A stretch of DNA of 64,000 nt. It comes from a phage. Location: the NCBI GenBank assembly GCA_018015315.1, contig GCA_018015315.1_3629.1. One strand, given 5' to 3'. A model generated the notes under the pieces. The model did not search any database and was not told where the DNA came from. It worked only from the letters and a program-made list of their open reading frames with translations. Below are positions 14,669-24,844 of the stretch, piece by piece. Made by a program: the position numbers and the translations under genes. Position 1 is the stretch's first letter; each line of letters begins with the position of its first letter.

Positions 14669-14697
14669 ATTGTATTAGGTCCTATCACTGTTGTCAA
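14669..14697 (-). promoter_or_regulatory. sigma70-type promoter
   Basis: -35 TTGACA, 17-nt spacer, -10 TACAAT. Confidence 0.5.
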
Positions 14698-16162: not shown

Positions 16163-18940
16163 TTAGTGACAATCACCCCAGTTACGACCACACAAGTATT
16201 CACCTGTGATCTGGAACGGGACTCCCATCATTTTAGAAGCTTGCCAGAAGCAATGCACCACCATTTCACCCACAGGGCTCCAGATAAGTTCAAGCTTTCC
16301 GTCATCGTTCAGGATAGGATCGTACACCGTGTTTCCGTCTCTGTCAACCACTTCGTTTCCGTTTTCATCCTTGCGTGCCTTTTTGTACTTATGACCGTCA
16401 AACACATGAAGTTTGGACTCCTGCTCTGCCTTAAATGCTTCCAATTCTTCAATTGTGTCGAAGGTGTACACAGTCTTATACTTAGGCGTGTCAGGGACCT
16501 GAAGTTGGTACTCATCATGGTAATAAATAATACGACGAACACCTTCATCGTACCACCCACGCTTCACCATTTGGTGGTGCATGAGTATCCCAACTAAGTC
16601 ACACAACGATGCACCACCATTTTGTTGGTATGCATTAAGTAAAGAGTGTTTAGATCGGGTCCAGATAGCATGACCATCAAAAGAGTAGATAAACTTCTTA
16701 CCCGTTGCTTCCCAGAATTTCTCCAGATCCTCTTTACGCCCTTTAAGACCAGGGTTGGCATCCCAAAGCGCATCGATTACCCTTTGCCCCAACTCTGGGG
16801 AGATATCCAGCATGTCTGCAACTTTATCTTTTTGTGCCCCATACATAACCCCGTACGTGATAGGTTTACCGTCGTTACGAGACACCTCTCTACCTGCTAC
16901 TTTCGTATATGCCTCAGCATTGTTTTGGTGGGCATCCCCGTTACTTACAACATCGTAATACAGGCCGTTGTCGAACTCAAAGGCACCCCAAGCCCCGATA
17001 AGCTGCTCTAAGTTGGACCCGTCAATACCGATCTCAAAGTATCCTGGAGGAACACCCCACAGACTGCGCATCTCTTTACCCATAACCACTTTAGGAGATG
17101 GTTTAGGCATGTTTGCACAAATACTGTGTTTCTGTCGGGAAGTGTTTGTTAATCCAGAACTTTTAGCAGGGAGCTTATGGTCAATCTTCAAACGTGGGTG
17201 ATTAAGAAGACCAGTATCAACCTTATCCTCCTTGATTGGATCAAGGACCGATCTGCGATTTCGCAATGATAACCACAAGACGATATCTTTAGCCATCTCT
17301 CCGTTCAATTTTTCAAGATTTGGGCATAGGTGTCCAAACGTATCTTTCAGCTGCGGAGAAGTAATAAGTGCTCTGGCTTTTCTACGTATTTTCCCGAATA
17401 CTTCCTTTTTAATCCTTTCGGAGTTAGGAAAGCTTCGGAACTTGTGCACTGTTGTCTGAAACTTAGCATCAGTTTTGTTCCAGAAGTTGATAATTAGATC
17501 ACAATACTCTGACTCTAAAAGCTCGTCCATGTATGCATATACTCGTGCATCAACATCTGCATCAGGTAGAGCTTTCTTCTTGCTGTCTTTAGTTACATCC
17601 TTAGTTCTCCACATTGTCGGAAGCCAACCAGCACTGATCAGGTATCGCTTAATGTCGTCCTGATTGCTGATTTTCATAGGTATCTTGCAGTCCGGCATTC
17701 GCTTCTGCTGTAGATCACTTATTGCCTGATCCATCAGCTCTTTAGGTAAAGGTTGTGGTGTGGAAGTGCCCTTAATATAGCCTCTCAAGAAATCAGCCAT
17801 CTTATCAAGGTCTTTGCAGCCCATCTCTTCACACCATTTTATCCCCATCTTGCTGACATCTCCTGTGGAGGTAAATGCTCGCTTAGGCGGGGCTTTGAAC
17901 TCTAAAGCACTCATGTCCACAGGATAGCCAAGCTTATCTTTTAACCATTTCCAACCATTGTTGGAGATTGTCCCATCTTGGTTAAACGGCTTTTCAGGGA
18001 ACTTGGGCCGCTGAGACATTGACAGCTCTTTTAAAGGAAGTTGAGGTTCAACACGATCAGCGATTTCTTTCATCCACGCATCGCAACGGTCACGTAAAGC
18101 AATAGCTCCATCTATGTCGAAGTATACACCCTGACGGGCCTGCAGCTCCATCAGGAAGTGCTGCAGCATGCCTCGACGTAGTGCGTTCTTCCAGGTGATC
18201 TTCTTGAACCCTTTCGGCTTCTCTTTGGCTGGATCGTACATAAAGTTCTGCATGTCAGATTTGCCGTAGAATACACCTTTTGATTCCGCTACCAGCTCTT
18301 TCCAGAGCAGCTCCTGGATGATAACGTCCTCGAATACACGATCCACATACTTCCACAACGGAAGATCGCGCCAGTCATCAATTTGAACTTTCTGGTTACC
18401 AAGGGCGTAGCCCCATGCCATAAGGCCGTGAGGACCAACAGGCTGCATTTTCTTAGTAACCGGGTTGAATACAGAGTCCGGACAACCTTTTGGTAAAGGG
18501 CGATCAGGCCACAAGATTCGGCTCATCGCCAACGTATCAAACAGGTTAACCTGGTGGTCGTTGATAGTCCCCATACATTTAGGATCACGGAACATATCAA
18601 AATGAATACCGGATAATCTCTCCATCAGCATAAAGTCATAACTGTAGCAGTTATGGCAGTTCAAAGCTGTTGGTGACCAGTCGGAATTGCCTGTAAGCCA
18701 ACCCTCCAACTCTGAAAAATCTGCTATGCGAACTTCAAAATCCTTATAAAGAGTTTTCTTTGCCAGAATAAAGTTCTTAGCCTTCTCTATATCCTCCTCG
18801 GAGTAGTGTGTGCGGTCATTCAGAGGAAGGAACAGCATAAAACGGTTCTTATTCAACGCTTTAAACAGGCCGCAGTGATAATAAAGGTCTGGATCTTCCA
18901 AAAGCCCAGAGGCCTCAAAATCGAAGCTATACATACTCAT
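16163..18940 (-). CDS. DNA polymerase, family A, with 3'-5' exonuclease domain
   Basis: Exo I FDFEASGL; Pol A motif B RNDGKPITYGVMYG; motif C YYHDEYQLQV; 925 aa; SD AAGGAG 8 nt before ATG. Confidence 0.9.
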   Translation of the reverse strand: MSMYSFDFEASGLLEDPDLYYHCGLFKALNKNRFMLFLPLNDRTHYSEEDIEKAKNFILAKKTLYKDFEVRIADFSELEGWLTGNSDWSPTALNCHNCYSYDFMLMERLSGIHFDMFRDPKCMGTINDHQVNLFDTLAMSRILWPDRPLPKGCPDSVFNPVTKKMQPVGPHGLMAWGYALGNQKVQIDDWRDLPLWKYVDRVFEDVIIQELLWKELVAESKGVFYGKSDMQNFMYDPAKEKPKGFKKITWKNALRRGMLQHFLMELQARQGVYFDIDGAIALRDRCDAWMKEIADRVEPQLPLKELSMSQRPKFPEKPFNQDGTISNNGWKWLKDKLGYPVDMSALEFKAPPKRAFTSTGDVSKMGIKWCEEMGCKDLDKMADFLRGYIKGTSTPQPLPKELMDQAISDLQQKRMPDCKIPMKISNQDDIKRYLISAGWLPTMWRTKDVTKDSKKKALPDADVDARVYAYMDELLESEYCDLIINFWNKTDAKFQTTVHKFRSFPNSERIKKEVFGKIRRKARALITSPQLKDTFGHLCPNLEKLNGEMAKDIVLWLSLRNRRSVLDPIKEDKVDTGLLNHPRLKIDHKLPAKSSGLTNTSRQKHSICANMPKPSPKVVMGKEMRSLWGVPPGYFEIGIDGSNLEQLIGAWGAFEFDNGLYYDVVSNGDAHQNNAEAYTKVAGREVSRNDGKPITYGVMYGAQKDKVADMLDISPELGQRVIDALWDANPGLKGRKEDLEKFWEATGKKFIYSFDGHAIWTRSKHSLLNAYQQNGGASLCDLVGILMHHQMVKRGWYDEGVRRIIYYHDEYQLQVPDTPKYKTVYTFDTIEELEAFKAEQESKLHVFDGHKYKKARKDENGNEVVDRDGNTVYDPILNDDGKLELIWSPVGEMVVHCFWQASKMMGVPFQITGEYLCGRNWGDCH

Positions 18941-18998: not shown

Positions 18999-21077
18999 TT
19001 AAAAAGGTGTTTCATCGTCTTCAAAACCAGGGACCGGATCAGAGGATGGATCATCGTATTGGAGGTCTTCCTGCGTGTCAATAGGCTTGACAGTGGGTGT
19101 TACAACCTTATCAGCCACAACCTTGCCCATAGGTGTTTCTACAACTGCATGCTCTTGATCCTCAAACATAGCCTGAGGTCTCCAAACAACCTCCCCACCT
19201 TCTCCGTCTGTAAACATTTGCATTTCTTTGTCCCAGTACCAATTACTGGCATCATGGAACTTACCTGTGTGCGGGTCCATAACTAAAGTGTCAGCAATAC
19301 CTAAAGTTTTTGCTGGACGGTTCTTAAGACCTACCAGACGGACACGTCCACGAGAACGATCCACCATTTCTTCGGCCTCAACACCTATGACTACCCAACT
19401 CAACTGTTCAAGCCCAGCCGATCCTCGCAAATTCTCTTTTCGCACAGGATACCAGAAAGGTAACGGGTTACCATTTTTGTCCTTAGGAGGCACAATCTCT
19501 GTACGTTTGAGGTGAGCGATCACCAAGATAAACACGTTAAACTGCTTACAAAACGCAGCCAGTTGGGTCATAGCCATGTCCAGTTCTTTTCGCTCATCCT
19601 TAACATTAAGCCCTGAAATTACCATGGACAGGTGATCCAGCACAATATAACGACAATGGTACAGGCAAACCATTTGCTTAAGCTTGGTAATCAACTCGTC
19701 CACCGGAATAGACCCGAAATGTTTGAACACTTTGATTTTTCCAGCTTTTGCCCATGATTGGTGAATCTCTGCGTGTTCTTGATCAGTTAAAAACTGGCTA
19801 GGATCTTCAACAAACTCTTTAACATCAAACCCTAACTGGTTTGCATACAAGGAGTTAATTGCTTCCTCTGGATCCTCCTCAAGATGGATCATGCATAGAC
19901 GATCATCCTCTTCATAGTCATCGGCCTTCGGGCATGTCGGGTCCATTAGGTATCTTGCAATACAGTGTTCCAGTTTTTTAGCCACGGTTGTTTTACCGCC
20001 GCCTGATGGACCTGTAAGCATTATGAGTGTCCCTTTGTGCAAGCCTTTTAGCATTTTTTGCAGTTTTGGGAACTCTGCACTGATATCTACCCCGTTGGAA
20101 GTCTTTTTCCGCAAAGACTCGATAGAGAAGTCTTCTAAATCCGACACAGCATCAGGCACATATTTAACAGGGTGCCGGAACATGTTGACAATATCTTCCA
20201 GCTTTTTAGCCTTCAGCATGTCTCGGATATCTTTTACACCGTCAGGGTCATTTACTTCACCAGGGTATTCTACGTGGTAAACGTTATCAGCCATCAAAAA
20301 TGCTGCGATATTGTGCGTGGCCTCAACACCTTTAATGACGTGTTTTTGCTTCTCTACCTCGTTAGCTGCATCGTTATCCATTGCCAGCACAACTGTTCCA
20401 TAGCTACGGATAAACTTCTCATTGTTTGCAAAAGTATCTACTGCGTTTGCACATCCACAGTTAATTCCAACAAAAGGCAGGCAGGGTTTTCCTGCCAGAT
20501 CACCACCGTTGATAACTGCGTCGATCCCGTCCTGGACCTCTTTAGCCCACTGCTTCACCTTTGCCGGGGCTTTAGCGTTGGTGAGAATCCCTTTTACTTG
20601 TATCTGATATGCAGCCTGCCATGCTGCAATAACATCACCTTCTCCCTCACAAACGTTAATCTGCTTACGGTTGTTGGAAGATGCACACAGCTTTTGACCA
20701 AACATCTGAGAGTTGGCCTTTACGATGCCAACAACGGAGAAATGGCCCCTTTGCTCTTTAGGAATAGTCCAGTCACGCTTTTTGAAACCGGACAGATTCC
20801 CGTAGCGGTCGTAATATGGGAAATATGTTGCAGTAACTGTCACACCGTCTTCTTGGGACAATGCTGATCGCACACCAAAATATTGTGCAGCCATCAGACC
20901 GATATTTTGTTGTGGGACAGGGACGATTTTAGTATTTTCTAAAACAGTCTCTACAGTTTCAACCTCTTTTTCATCACGATAGTCTCGTTTCACACTTCCC
21001 CCACTTTTATACTTAGTTGCTTTCGGGTTTGGCTCACCGAAACGGTTGTATGCAGATGCCATAAATTTACTTCCCAT
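18999..21077 (-). CDS. bifunctional primase-helicase (Toprim + DnaB/gp4-like helicase)
   Basis: Toprim CEGEGD and LAMDNDAAN; Walker A GPSGGGKTT; Walker B IVLDH; ends in acidic tail EDDETPF; SD AAGGAG. Confidence 0.85.
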   Translation of the reverse strand: MGSKFMASAYNRFGEPNPKATKYKSGGSVKRDYRDEKEVETVETVLENTKIVPVPQQNIGLMAAQYFGVRSALSQEDGVTVTATYFPYYDRYGNLSGFKKRDWTIPKEQRGHFSVVGIVKANSQMFGQKLCASSNNRKQINVCEGEGDVIAAWQAAYQIQVKGILTNAKAPAKVKQWAKEVQDGIDAVINGGDLAGKPCLPFVGINCGCANAVDTFANNEKFIRSYGTVVLAMDNDAANEVEKQKHVIKGVEATHNIAAFLMADNVYHVEYPGEVNDPDGVKDIRDMLKAKKLEDIVNMFRHPVKYVPDAVSDLEDFSIESLRKKTSNGVDISAEFPKLQKMLKGLHKGTLIMLTGPSGGGKTTVAKKLEHCIARYLMDPTCPKADDYEEDDRLCMIHLEEDPEEAINSLYANQLGFDVKEFVEDPSQFLTDQEHAEIHQSWAKAGKIKVFKHFGSIPVDELITKLKQMVCLYHCRYIVLDHLSMVISGLNVKDERKELDMAMTQLAAFCKQFNVFILVIAHLKRTEIVPPKDKNGNPLPFWYPVRKENLRGSAGLEQLSWVVIGVEAEEMVDRSRGRVRLVGLKNRPAKTLGIADTLVMDPHTGKFHDASNWYWDKEMQMFTDGEGGEVVWRPQAMFEDQEHAVVETPMGKVVADKVVTPTVKPIDTQEDLQYDDPSSDPVPGFEDDETPF

Positions 21078-21831
21078 TAATTCTGCTCCTTACTACAGGC
21101 TCGTTTGCTAAGAATACAGCTTTTGCCCAGCCACGTGGTGTGAGGCTTCGGATCATCTTCGTTCTTGCACTCTTTCCACCCAGCTTAGCGTGTTGCATGG
21201 AGTACCCACTAACCGCGTCAACTATTTGCGGGACAGGTTTTGTGTCCGGGATTATAAATCCATTACCTATCCAGCCGCAAGTTATTTTTGGATAGGCATC
21301 ACGTGGAGCTATAAATTCAGGAAACCAGGGGTTTACATCATCCTCCGGTAAATACCCGCCATAGTCAGAAGGGTGAAAACGGTAATCAGGTTTGCGCCAC
21401 AGTGTGGACATAACACCCACAGGATTCTCTACATGCCACGGGCAATCGTAAATCTCTCCCAACTCTTCTGCAACCCGAGCATCCTTTACAGCATTGATCT
21501 GGATCAGCGGGTCCTTAGCCAGCTTCTTCTTAAAGTGTGCAGCACCTGACACCGCTAAGTGGGTGCACGGAGGAAATGCAAGAACAAAGTCCGGAGCTGG
21601 GTACATGCAGAAAGTTTCCTGAGGGAACCATGGATCAATCCAATAATCTACATAGTGAATATTTGGATGATCGGTGATCACCTCTGCATAACTGCCGTGG
21701 TCAGCACCTTCTGCGTTAAAGCACAGGCACAGATATCCAGCTTTTGCCCAGTCAATGACTGCACCGCCAGATCCGTCAAATAGACTCCACACAACACCTT
21801 TGTGGTAGTGTTCTTTATAGATAAATTTCAA
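21067..21831 (-). CDS. C5-cytosine methyltransferase-fold protein with atypical motifs
   Basis: Motif I SLFDGSGG, motif IV FPPCT (PCQ expected), motif VI HVENP (ENV expected); only about 254 aa; probable TTG start at 21831 after SD AGGAGA (track GTG start lies inside terminator hairpin). Confidence 0.6.
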   Translation of the reverse strand: MKFIYKEHYHKGVVWSLFDGSGGAVIDWAKAGYLCLCFNAEGADHGSYAEVITDHPNIHYVDYWIDPWFPQETFCMYPAPDFVLAFPPCTHLAVSGAAHFKKKLAKDPLIQINAVKDARVAEELGEIYDCPWHVENPVGVMSTLWRKPDYRFHPSDYGGYLPEDDVNPWFPEFIAPRDAYPKITCGWIGNGFIIPDTKPVPQIVDAVSGYSMQHAKLGGKSARTKMIRSLTPRGWAKAVFLANEPVVRSRINGK

Positions 21832-21847
21832 TTTGCTGTCTCCTAAT

Positions 21848-21877
21848 GCAAAAAGCCCCACCCTTTCGGGCAGGGCC
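21848..21877 (-). terminator. intrinsic terminator upstream of MTase-like gene
   Basis: GGCCCUGCC-CGAAA-GGGUGGGGC then UUUUUG. Confidence 0.6.
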
Positions 21878-21882
21878 TAGTG

Positions 21883-22365
21883 TTAAACCCGGATACCTAT
21901 TGTATACTCGGTGGATACCAATGTCAAATCTAAATTTAAAATTTCTTGCATCTCATAGTATGCATCCAGGGTGAGATACATTTCCCCATCCTTTTCTACA
22001 TACTTGTCCAAGTGCTTGAGGCATTTCGGATAACTATTAAGGGCAGCCTTTAGGCACTCAAACTCTGTGCTGTTGATGAATCCTTCCATCTTGGCTACCC
22101 GTTCTGGGGTAACGATAGCACTGTAGTGAGATTTAGCTTCCTGAATGCAATGGGTCCAAGCATCAACTTTCTCTTCGAAAAGTCCGAAGAACTTCTTTTT
22201 GGTGAGCTTCAGATTCTTTAAGTGCTTAAGCACTCGGTTGCCGATCACAGATACATCACGAAACTTAAAGATCACTTTGTCAATATCCTCGCGGCCTATT
22301 TTTACAAAGCAAGCCTCGCACATTTCAGGAGAGGCATAACCTACTTTCCACATAAAATCTGACAT
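21883..22365 (-). CDS. hypothetical protein (160 aa)
   Basis: ORF track. Confidence 0.55.
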   Translation of the reverse strand: MSDFMWKVGYASPEMCEACFVKIGREDIDKVIFKFRDVSVIGNRVLKHLKNLKLTKKKFFGLFEEKVDAWTHCIQEAKSHYSAIVTPERVAKMEGFINSTEFECLKAALNSYPKCLKHLDKYVEKDGEMYLTLDAYYEMQEILNLDLTLVSTEYTIGIRV

Positions 22366-23075: not shown

Positions 23076-23135
23076 CGTTTAGTGCTTCCTTAGTTTTTGT
23101 GGGGAGGAGTGCCTCCCCTTTAGACTAACATCTTA

Positions 23136-23477
23136 CTACTGAAGGTCTTCAGAGTCAAGCTCAAAAAGAATCAAACTGTGCATGCTTGCAGAGAGATCAA
23201 CGCACCCTGCAATAATAAGGGTCTGATAGTAAGGTTCAGCACCCTCAATGTCTTCGTTAAAATCTACAACAAGATAGTCACCTTTGTTAAAGATGTATTT
23301 GTCCGATGTAAACGCAAAACCTGCCCAGTCCCCTACTGCAGGATCTTTATCAGTCACCTTTGTTAGCAGTAGGTCTTTTTCACGAGATCTTTTAGTAAAA
23401 TCGTGAATCACAACATCCTTCTCTTCAGGAGTTGGACTACCACACACGTAGTTAACTATATTTCTCCACAAACTCAT
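23136..23477 (-). CDS. hypothetical protein (113 aa)
   Basis: ORF track; 4-nt overlap with helicase gene. Confidence 0.5.
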   Translation of the reverse strand: MSLWRNIVNYVCGSPTPEEKDVVIHDFTKRSREKDLLLTKVTDKDPAVGDWAGFAFTSDKYIFNKGDYLVVDFNEDIEGAEPYYQTLIIAGCVDLSASMHSLILFELDSEDLQ

Positions 23478-24844
23478 ACGTCCCCCTCTTCTGCTCTGGT
23501 TTCAAAATCTTTCCTGACAATTTTGTCTAAGTCAGGGAATGTTGTATTGTAAAACTCTACGACTCGCGGGTCAACAATAATATCAACTTCTCTTAGTGGA
23601 CGCAACAAGTTTATCCCTTGTATTGTCTTAACTCGACTCAAAGCAACATACGTCATCCCAGGAGAGAAAGCTCCGTTCTTTCCAAGGTCTAGGTTGTAAC
23701 AATCTAGCGTAAGTCCTTGACTTTTATGAGATGTTACGGCGTACCCAGATTTTAGAGGAAGTTGCTTGTATGACCCAATCACCACCCTCTCTATAAACTT
23801 CTCCATCTTCCTTTCTGCAATGTTGTATCTTTGAGATGGCTTATACTCGTTATTCTCCCACAACCTTTGCTCTATGTCAACCTGTGTTCCATCTTCAAGC
23901 TCCACCACCACCGCCTTGTTCTTAAATTTAACAATTGTGGCACGTGTTCCGTTAACATAATAAGGTACTTTGTGCGTCGGGTCAACATCGTTGGCGGTTA
24001 TCATAACCTTCATGCCAATTTTCAACTTCATCTCCTGCTCAACTGGCAGGGTGGAGGGAAACTTACCTTTCATTTCACCAGTGTATACCTTTTCTGGGGC
24101 GTTGATGGCATCATAGAACCTTCTGTTCACTTCCTCCGCTTGTTTGTTGGTGGCGCAAATTGTGAGAGCGTCTGTTGGTACACCGCCTTTGTAACAACGA
24201 GCATTAAGTTCTGCTACAACCTCTTTTATGCGACGACCCTCACGAACACAGTTGAGCATTGTGGCAAATCGAATAGACTCCTGTCGGAACTGATCTACTA
24301 GGGCTATGTTGTGGAGGTCAAGCTCTTTCCAAGATTCGGTATAGCAACACAGGTCCGTATGGTAGAAGTTGAAGTAGGCTTCCTTCTCCATAGAAGATAC
24401 AACAGGAGGTGCTTGGTAAAAATCGCCAAACAATATGACCTGTATGCCTCCGAAAGGTTTGTCATTTTTTCGAAGGAAGCGGAGTTTCCTATCCATCTCT
24501 ATAAACTTATCAGCACGGATCATAGAGATTTCATCGATAATTAGGATGGTAAATGCCTTGCTTTTCAAAGGCTTTGCTGTTTTTGCCCTTATTGCAGTCC
24601 AGTCCGACTCCATGCTCACACCTGCTGCAAGATCGAATGTTCGGTGTGCTGTTGCTCCATTAACGTTTAATGCGGCTACCCCTGTCGGGGCAACCGTTAT
24701 GCAAGAGTCTCCATACATGGACTGGATCATGTTGATGAGGTATGTCTTCCCACAACCTGCGGGTCCTGAAACGAAGACATTCTCACCGCTCATGATTGCA
24801 ATGAGGGCAGCATCTGTGCCTACGTCATACTGCCCTTTTTCCAT
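23474..24844 (-). CDS. PIF1/Dda-like superfamily 1 DNA helicase
   Basis: Walker A GPAGCGKT; ITVAPTGVAA; ILIIDEISM; GDFYQAPPV; C-terminal ALSRVKT. Confidence 0.85.
   Translation of the reverse strand: MEKGQYDVGTDAALIAIMSGENVFVSGPAGCGKTYLINMIQSMYGDSCITVAPTGVAALNVNGATAHRTFDLAAGVSMESDWTAIRAKTAKPLKSKAFTILIIDEISMIRADKFIEMDRKLRFLRKNDKPFGGIQVILFGDFYQAPPVVSSMEKEAYFNFYHTDLCCYTESWKELDLHNIALVDQFRQESIRFATMLNCVREGRRIKEVVAELNARCYKGGVPTDALTICATNKQAEEVNRRFYDAINAPEKVYTGEMKGKFPSTLPVEQEMKLKIGMKVMITANDVDPTHKVPYYVNGTRATIVKFKNKAVVVELEDGTQVDIEQRLWENNEYKPSQRYNIAERKMEKFIERVVIGSYKQLPLKSGYAVTSHKSQGLTLDCYNLDLGKNGAFSPGMTYVALSRVKTIQGINLLRPLREVDIIVDPRVVEFYNTTFPDLDKIVRKDFETRAEEGDV

Follow-up and report, generated by a model that had tools for sequence, protein, structure and literature searches.

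Can a protein of 254 residues, with Thr where Gln is canonical beside its catalytic Cys and Pro in place of Val in its ENV motif, be a working DNA cytosine-C5 methyltransferase? The question is raised by a minus-strand gene (21067..21831) in a 64,000-nucleotide stretch of phage DNA (contig GCA_018015315.1_3629.1 of GenBank assembly GCA_018015315.1), the whole of which is called the window below. The sequence-only reading of this locus had left three options: an ordinary anti-restriction methylase, an enzyme installing a different C5 modification, or a catalytically altered DNA binder. The first is favoured here as far as methyltransferase activity alone is concerned; the fold, the conserved loop for S-adenosylmethionine (SAM), the conserved Cys and Glu, and the 5-methylcytosine (5mC) reported for the Dcm of phage K42 all speak for it. 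Most probably (we would put it at about 85%) the product is an active DNA cytosine-C5 methyltransferase that uses SAM and belongs to PHROG 757, a large "mini-Dcm" family specific to phages (~225–260 residues).

Family membership and catalytic motifs

The phage family of compact C5-cytosine DNA methyltransferases to which the gene belongs is already known and has been annotated widely. The protein matches the PHROG 757 profile ("DNA methyltransferase") over its full length with E = 6.6e-87 (residues 1–251 against positions 3–226 of 247; the query was a 264-residue open reading frame (ORF) with a GTG start, whose matched residues 10–261 correspond to residues 1–251 of the 254-residue protein). 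All signature blocks of the family are present (PPCT, ENP, YGGYLP...PRDAYPK and LGGKS..IRSLTPRG) with one deviation, Ile183. Homologues were found by tblastn in 1,504 phage records, including 577 of Escherichia, 521 of Klebsiella and 107 of Salmonella, among the Drexlerviridae, Webervirus, 9NA-like, RB49-like and rV5-like phages; the copies of Vequintavirus are 95–99% identical in 110 records. A word-indexed search of proteins returned 3,525 homologues and an exhaustive one 1,007 clusters at 50% identity (E ≤ 1e-3), nearly all of 210–260 residues. Because of the profile match and these two counts, the ORF can be taken as real, well past chance.

The MaxBurger (Bas54) orthologue bas54_0074, 99% identical, is annotated as "Dcm-like C5 cytosine methyltransferase", and other records carry the labels "site specific DNA methylase" or "hypothetical protein". 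As a discovery the gene therefore has little weight, and its novelty is low: genomes nearly identical to this one already carry its annotation, and experiments have been done on another member of the family. The general model PF00145 does not match the protein at E ≤ 1. At E ≤ 0.01 it matches 12 of 81 relatives, and three relatives pass its gathering cutoff of 22 (24.7–28.5 bits), only over profile positions 4–94 (motifs I–IV). When the family profile was compared with PDB sequences, DNMT3B and M.HaeIII alone were matched, below threshold and over motifs I–IV.

All three motifs quoted in the sequence-only reading were located in the protein. SLFDGSGG (residues 16–23) contains the FxGxG SAM-binding loop of C5 methyltransferases (motif I), FPPCT (86–90) contains the Pro-Cys of motif IV with the catalytic Cys followed by Thr instead of the canonical Gln, and VENP (134–137), within VENPV, contains the catalytic Glu of motif VI. 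Conservation was counted in an alignment of 234 diverse family members. Cys89 is found in 227 of them, Glu135 in 231 and Asn136 in 225; Phe86 of FPPC is kept in 214, Gly96 in 233 and Lys182 in 225, and within motif I the counts are 177 for Phe18 and 195 for Gly22. The residue after PPC is Thr in 216/234, and position 137 is Pro, in place of the Val of ENV, in 232/234. Since PCT and ENP are thus the consensus of the family, they are not specific to this gene, and the idea that they mark unusual catalysis finds no support; DNMT3B carries PCN in place of PCQ as well (alignment of the family profile with PDB sequences). These deviations are compatible with the formation of 5mC. In the proposed reaction Cys89 (PPC) would attack C6 of a flipped-out cytosine, Glu135 (ENP) would protonate N3, and the methyl group would pass to C5 from SAM held by the FDGSGG loop.

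Predicted fold and DNA-recognition region

The AlphaFold2 model, built from 81 sequences, has a mean predicted local distance difference test score of 92.7 and a predicted template modelling score of 0.91. Among its best 50 Foldseek matches in the PDB there are only the catalytic domains of DNMT3A/B/C and the prophage cytosine methyltransferase 3g7u. The modelled fold is that of a C5-cytosine methyltransferase; a fold outside class I methyltransferases, the outcome on which the sequence-only reading would have been dropped, is not what the model and the Foldseek comparison gave. The secondary structure comprises the usual β1–β7 core with β7 at residues 184–189. After it come only a loop of ~22 residues, a pair of short helices and a long helix at the C-terminus, and a highly conserved insert of 29 residues (154–182) lies between β6 and β7. 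The remark that a protein of this size has little room for a conventional target-recognition domain was thus correct: between β7 and the last helix only the ~22 residues and the two short helices are available. The missing domain is the one interesting structural point of the protein. Judging from the fold-search lists, the family is the most compact C5-cytosine methyltransferase lineage of those compared (~225–260 residues versus 272–291 for DNMT3 catalytic-domain chains and 320–388 for bacterial enzymes), and searches of PDB sequences gave no solved structure for any of its members.

Strong variation within the family is confined to residues 193–215, which occur in two discrete types: "...G-YSxQHxKLGGKS" in the window phage, SSE121, JEP8 and many others, and "...xNPGWxKxGGKS" in tonnikala/K42 and AAS23. 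This makes the loop a candidate specificity determinant. Since a conventional target-recognition domain is missing, recognition would probably proceed via the family-conserved β6–β7 insert together with this short variable loop.

The C-terminal half is the less readable part of the sequence. Motif VIII in the form QxRxR was not found in the protein, and the invariant Lys182 precedes β7. The family was compared by hhalign with 19 Dcm orthologues and with M.HhaI and DNMT3A sequences, and nothing aligned beyond motifs IV and VI; against the Dcm orthologues the match covered 26 columns around the PC motif with a probability of 1.5%. Alignments made with the -glob option were discarded as end-to-end and meaningless. 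Basic residues are conserved in this region, namely Lys220 in LGGKS and Arg233 in TPRG.

Like the window protein, the catalytic domains of DNMT3A and DNMT3B lack PCQ (they have PCN) and have a reduced recognition domain. They differ in sequence (12–16% identity), in size (~285 residues), in forming oligomers with DNMT3L and in their CpG targets, and the profile–profile sequence alignment with the family reaches motifs I–IV and VI only. With E. coli Dcm/M.EcoRII (PF00145 + PF18284) the protein presumably shares the product, 5mC, and possibly the site, CCWGG. The two are not orthologous: E. coli Dcm, with 472 residues as against 254 here, has a complete recognition domain as well as an N-terminal one.

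Homologues with experimental data and the probable target

The nearest measured activity is that of the K42 enzyme. According to a preprint, escapers of K42 (KarlJaspers-like) from retron Ec86 lost a 711-bp gene for a "Dcm-like C5 cytosine methyltransferase", expression of this Dcm activates the retron, and 34 of 35 Ec86-sensitive phages encode Dcm (bioRxiv 10.1101/2023.08.16.553469). Mass spectrometry coupled to liquid chromatography (LC-MS) found high 5mC in the multicopy single-stranded DNA (msDNA) of Ec86 with wild-type K42 Dcm and not with the C82A/E128A/K175A/K176A mutant; the 5mC was raised in a dcm+ host, in which the vector control was low (same reference). The same authors saw that a CCTGG mutation in the msDNA abolished defence and that Dcm alone was toxic. 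In a later paper this mechanism is cited as established for retron Eco1 (PMC12916289).

K42 Dcm is assigned to the PHROG 757 family, with the same PPCT/ENP motifs, by residue numbering: the 236-residue form of tonnikala gp18 has C82, E128, K175 and K176 (in FPPCT, IENP and FKKTC) at exactly the positions given for K42 Dcm. Between tonnikala gp18 and the window protein tblastn gives 52.5% identity over residues 20–254. K42 Dcm/tonnikala gp18 and the window protein have in common the PHROG, the PPCT/ENP/FDGSG/IRSLTPRG signatures, the compact size and a position near a helicase gene. They differ in the loop (NPGW in K42 Dcm/tonnikala), in KK175/176 (K-I here) and in the phage, which is a siphovirus of Drexlerviridae; moreover, the K42 activity was measured, whereas that of the window protein is predicted. 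The second homologue, gp52 of Pantoea phage vB_PagS_AAS23, is 52% identical over 236 residues and differs from the window protein in its NPGW loop, its host and its phage family. AAS23 virion DNA was reported to be Dam- and Dcm-methylated in a restriction panel that included EcoRII; BLASTP found no conserved domain in gp52, and HHpred matched it to the Dcm structure 3ME5 at 99.7% (PMC8004638).

In view of these homologues CCWGG is the most likely target of the window enzyme, at about even odds. The enzyme would act on replicating phage DNA, and CCWGG methylation would shield progeny DNA from restriction of the EcoRII type at the cost of exposure to methylation-sensing defences such as retron Eco1/Ec86. 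Counts of CCWGG are uninformative in this respect: the window contains 130 sites, with an observed/expected ratio of ~0.8. As the family is a known trigger of retron defence, knowing which copies are active and what they target helps to predict the sensitivity of phages to methylation-sensing immunity.

Several observations weigh against an active enzyme or against its assignment to CCWGG. The models of Pfam and NCBIfam miss the protein (PF00145 caught only a minority of its relatives), and direct searches of Pfam, NCBIfam and PDB sequences with it returned nothing relevant. Motifs VIII to X could not be mapped by sequence, the profile comparisons stopping short of the C-terminal half. Position 183 is Ile here and Ile/Leu in the Vequintavirus clade, as against Lys or Arg in 181/234 family members, and it matches one of the four K42 Dcm residues that were mutated together for inactivation. 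For K42 Dcm the CCWGG specificity was itself only deduced, using msDNA mutants and a dcm+ host, and the loop of the two homologues studied experimentally is NPGW instead of YSxQH; because of this difference the CCWGG assignment is weak. Literature searches found no methylome data for Vequintavirus. In BASEL the Vequintavirinae were "exceptionally susceptible" to the restriction–modification systems tested, among which there was no CCWGG-specific enzyme.

Alternative specificities and activities

It is possible, with odds clearly short of even, that the enzyme forms 5mC from SAM but not at CCWGG; its site could, for instance, be shorter or degenerate, or it could prefer DNA in hairpin or single-stranded form. 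The difference between the loop here and those of K42/tonnikala and AAS23 would fit such a shift, as would the minimal recognition apparatus of only ~22 residues from β7 to the next helix. The rise of msDNA 5mC upon expression of K42 Dcm in a host that already has dcm implies a substrate or site range unlike that of the host Dcm, and the toxicity of K42 Dcm alone points the same way. On the other hand, the rest of the putative DNA-contacting region (residues 154–192 and 216–234) differs little from one loop type to the other, and such high conservation speaks for a similar mode of recognition; the CCTGG mutation that ended the defence and the reported Dcm methylation of AAS23 DNA also favour CCWGG. 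A broader departure from a simple CCWGG 5mC methylase, for this enzyme and perhaps for the whole family of ~230–250 residues, we consider unlikely; with the conventional target-recognition domain and the canonical layout of motifs VIII–X lost, it would involve novel recognition via the β6–β7 insert, unusual substrates (hairpin or single-stranded DNA, a short degenerate site), or even the use of host carboxy-S-adenosylmethionine (Cx-SAM) via a basic motif X residue, giving 5-carboxymethylcytosine.

The transfer of a non-methyl group, for instance of carboxymethyl from Cx-SAM made by the host CmoA, as in CmoX, is very improbable. CmoX departs from methyltransferases mainly by a basic residue in place of the motif X Asn: in its structure (PDB 8yf3) an Arg replaces Asn304 of HhaI and contacts the carboxyl of Cx-SAM (PMC12783734). 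The window protein conserves Lys220 and Arg233 in the very region where motif X is unmapped, and E. coli has cmoA. By eye, LGGKSARTKMIRSL resembles motif X of DNMT3A (GRSWSVPVIRHL), which is a lead only. Against carboxymethyl transfer, K42 Dcm with the same motifs gave 5mC by LC-MS, and the window protein has FPPC, not the SPPC that defines CmoX; DNMT3A, moreover, is an enzyme that works with SAM and yet has Arg at that place in motif X. A phage CmoA gene adjacent to CmoX, often with a CmoY ligase, completes the known system (PMC12783734); neither CmoA nor CmoY, the ligase partner, is annotated near the MaxBurger orthologue. A tblastn search with E. coli CmoA of 50,697 phage records found it in 86, with no Escherichia or Klebsiella among the ten organism groups listed, four smaller groups lying outside the list, whereas 1,098 Escherichia/Klebsiella records carry the present family. 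The CmoA distribution, the FPPC motif and the 5mC of the K42 homologue thus leave the option of a different C5 modification with nothing in its support.

The minimal recognition domain would also suit methylation of RNA (e.g. of tRNA C38, as by DNMT2) with the fold of a DNA methyltransferase being misleading, a reading that is hardly credible given that K42 Dcm, as assigned to the family, methylates the DNA part of msDNA and that AAS23 virion DNA was reported to be Dcm-methylated. Equally far-fetched is a catalytically dead, methyltransferase-derived DNA binder acting in replication, for which the probable translational coupling to the primase/helicase, the K183-to-Ile change of the Vequintavirus clade and the missing Pfam match could be cited: Cys89, Glu135, Asn136 and the FDGSGG loop, i.e. 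the residues of catalysis and SAM binding, are all kept and strongly conserved across the family, the Vequintavirus copies are nearly identical, and a homologue with the same motifs is active.

Gene model and genomic context

The coordinates of the gene and of the features around it are collected in Table 1. The model with the TTG start, already chosen in the sequence-only reading, is best supported by the spacing of the Shine-Dalgarno sequence, by the identical 765-nt coding sequence annotated in relatives and by P0002, a homologue with 80% identity that has a Met start at the equivalent site and the conserved N-terminus MDFIYKD.... The longer ORF of the mechanical ORF list was rejected as its GTG lies within the stem of the upstream hairpin and lacks a ribosome-binding site. 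Nor was a start at the internal GTG of codon 14 accepted, the N-terminal extension being conserved in P0002.

Table 1. Positions in the window of the methyltransferase gene and of neighbouring features
Feature	Position	Strand	Remarks
Methyltransferase coding sequence	21067..21831	-	254 residues, 765 nt; motif I residues 16-23, PPCT 87-90, ENP 135-137, insert 154-182, variable loop ~193-215, C-terminal helix 233-253
TTG start codon	21831-21829	-	
Shine-Dalgarno sequence AGGAGA	21839..21844	-	7-nt spacing to the TTG start
Residue 183	~21283-21285	-	Ile
Variable loop	~21187-21255	-	residues 193-215
Longer ORF, rejected	21067..21861	-	264 residues, GTG start
GC-rich hairpin	21853..21878	-	11 pairs, GAAA loop, then T5; terminator-like for upstream transcripts
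Sigma70-like promoter match	21899..21927	-	TTGACA-17 nt-TACAAT, 11/12; within the upstream ORF, at its 3' end
Primase/helicase gene	18999..21077	-	from its ATG, shares 11 nt with the end of the methyltransferase coding sequence
DNA polymerase gene	16163-18940	-	one intact 925-residue ORF
Helicase gene	23474-24844		1.6 kb upstream of the methyltransferase gene
Intergenic segment	23076-23135	-	between ORFs of 303 and 342 nt

The window belongs to a Vequintavirus (an rV5-like E. coli myovirus): the 10-kb stretch around the gene is 97–98% identical to Murica, naswa, FFH2 and others. Sixteen records labelled "Campylobacter phage" (MG065635 C12, MG065659 C5 and 14 others; host Campylobacter jejuni) show the same 97–98% identity over 10 kb and are probably mislabelled or contaminants.

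The position between primase-helicase and helicase genes, as described from the sequence alone, is roughly right. The primase/helicase gene overlaps the methyltransferase gene by 11 nt and is followed by the DNA polymerase gene; the helicase gene is at some distance, with four small ORFs in between. The overlap suggests translational coupling and co-expression of methyltransferase and primase/helicase. Linkage of the gene to helicase or other replication genes recurs in unrelated phages. In some uncultured phages (BFVD A0A6J5SE15, 1,397 residues, and A0A6J5NPY6, 1,126 residues) the same mini-methyltransferase fold occurs as a domain within helicase-type proteins of very large size (24–26% identity, E ~1e-11 to 1e-8), which echoes this recurrent place beside helicase genes.

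The gene had been described as lying behind its own terminator. A terminator-like hairpin of 11 bp followed by T5 is indeed present; the sigma70-like promoter upstream of it was overlooked. This match is the best sigma70-like site of the region and lies ~20 nt beyond the hairpin, which would fall within the 5' leader of any transcript from it. A scan of the whole window gave 15 sigma70-like matches of that strength, several of which likewise have a short hairpin behind them, together with a ribosome-binding site and a start codon. Because of the 11/12 match and this recurrent layout, a host-type promoter of its own probably serves the gene, which would then be more than a gene placed behind a terminator. 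For a related genus of Vequintavirinae, too, sigma70-like promoters have been reported close to the genes for helicase, methylase and polymerase (PMC7344957). The hairpin is the same in MaxBurger and naswa; the 140 nt upstream of the gene are identical in two relatives, and conservation is hence uninformative here. Expression would proceed from the gene's own sigma70-type promoter and/or by read-through, in translational linkage with the primase/helicase.

Promoter-like sites on the minus strand start at 21927, 15897, 14697, 10034, 9581, 6715, 5577, 3480 and 3169, with a recurrent arrangement of sigma70-like promoter (11–12/12), short leader, ribosome-binding site and start codon. A small GC hairpin is frequent in these leaders, e.g. 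at 14697, 5577, 3169 and 21927. A transcript from the 21927 promoter would meet the terminator-like hairpin ~15 nt after its start, and the hairpin might serve for attenuation or to stabilise the 5' end.

In the intergenic segment at 23076-23135 a gene of ~1.3 kb for a "putative N6 adenine methyltransferase" is absent, which is present there in MaxBurger (bas54_0070), naswa (naswa_99), Murica and most relatives; an upstream intergenic hairpin abuts the ATG of the next gene. As a consequence, the C5 enzyme is the only DNA methyltransferase of the replication module. In several relatives (FFH2, JLBYU08 and ime) the polymerase region aligns with that of the window in 3–4 pieces and two polymerase coding sequences are annotated, which implies that their polymerase genes carry mobile insertions (an intron or a homing endonuclease) that the intact gene of the window phage does not have.

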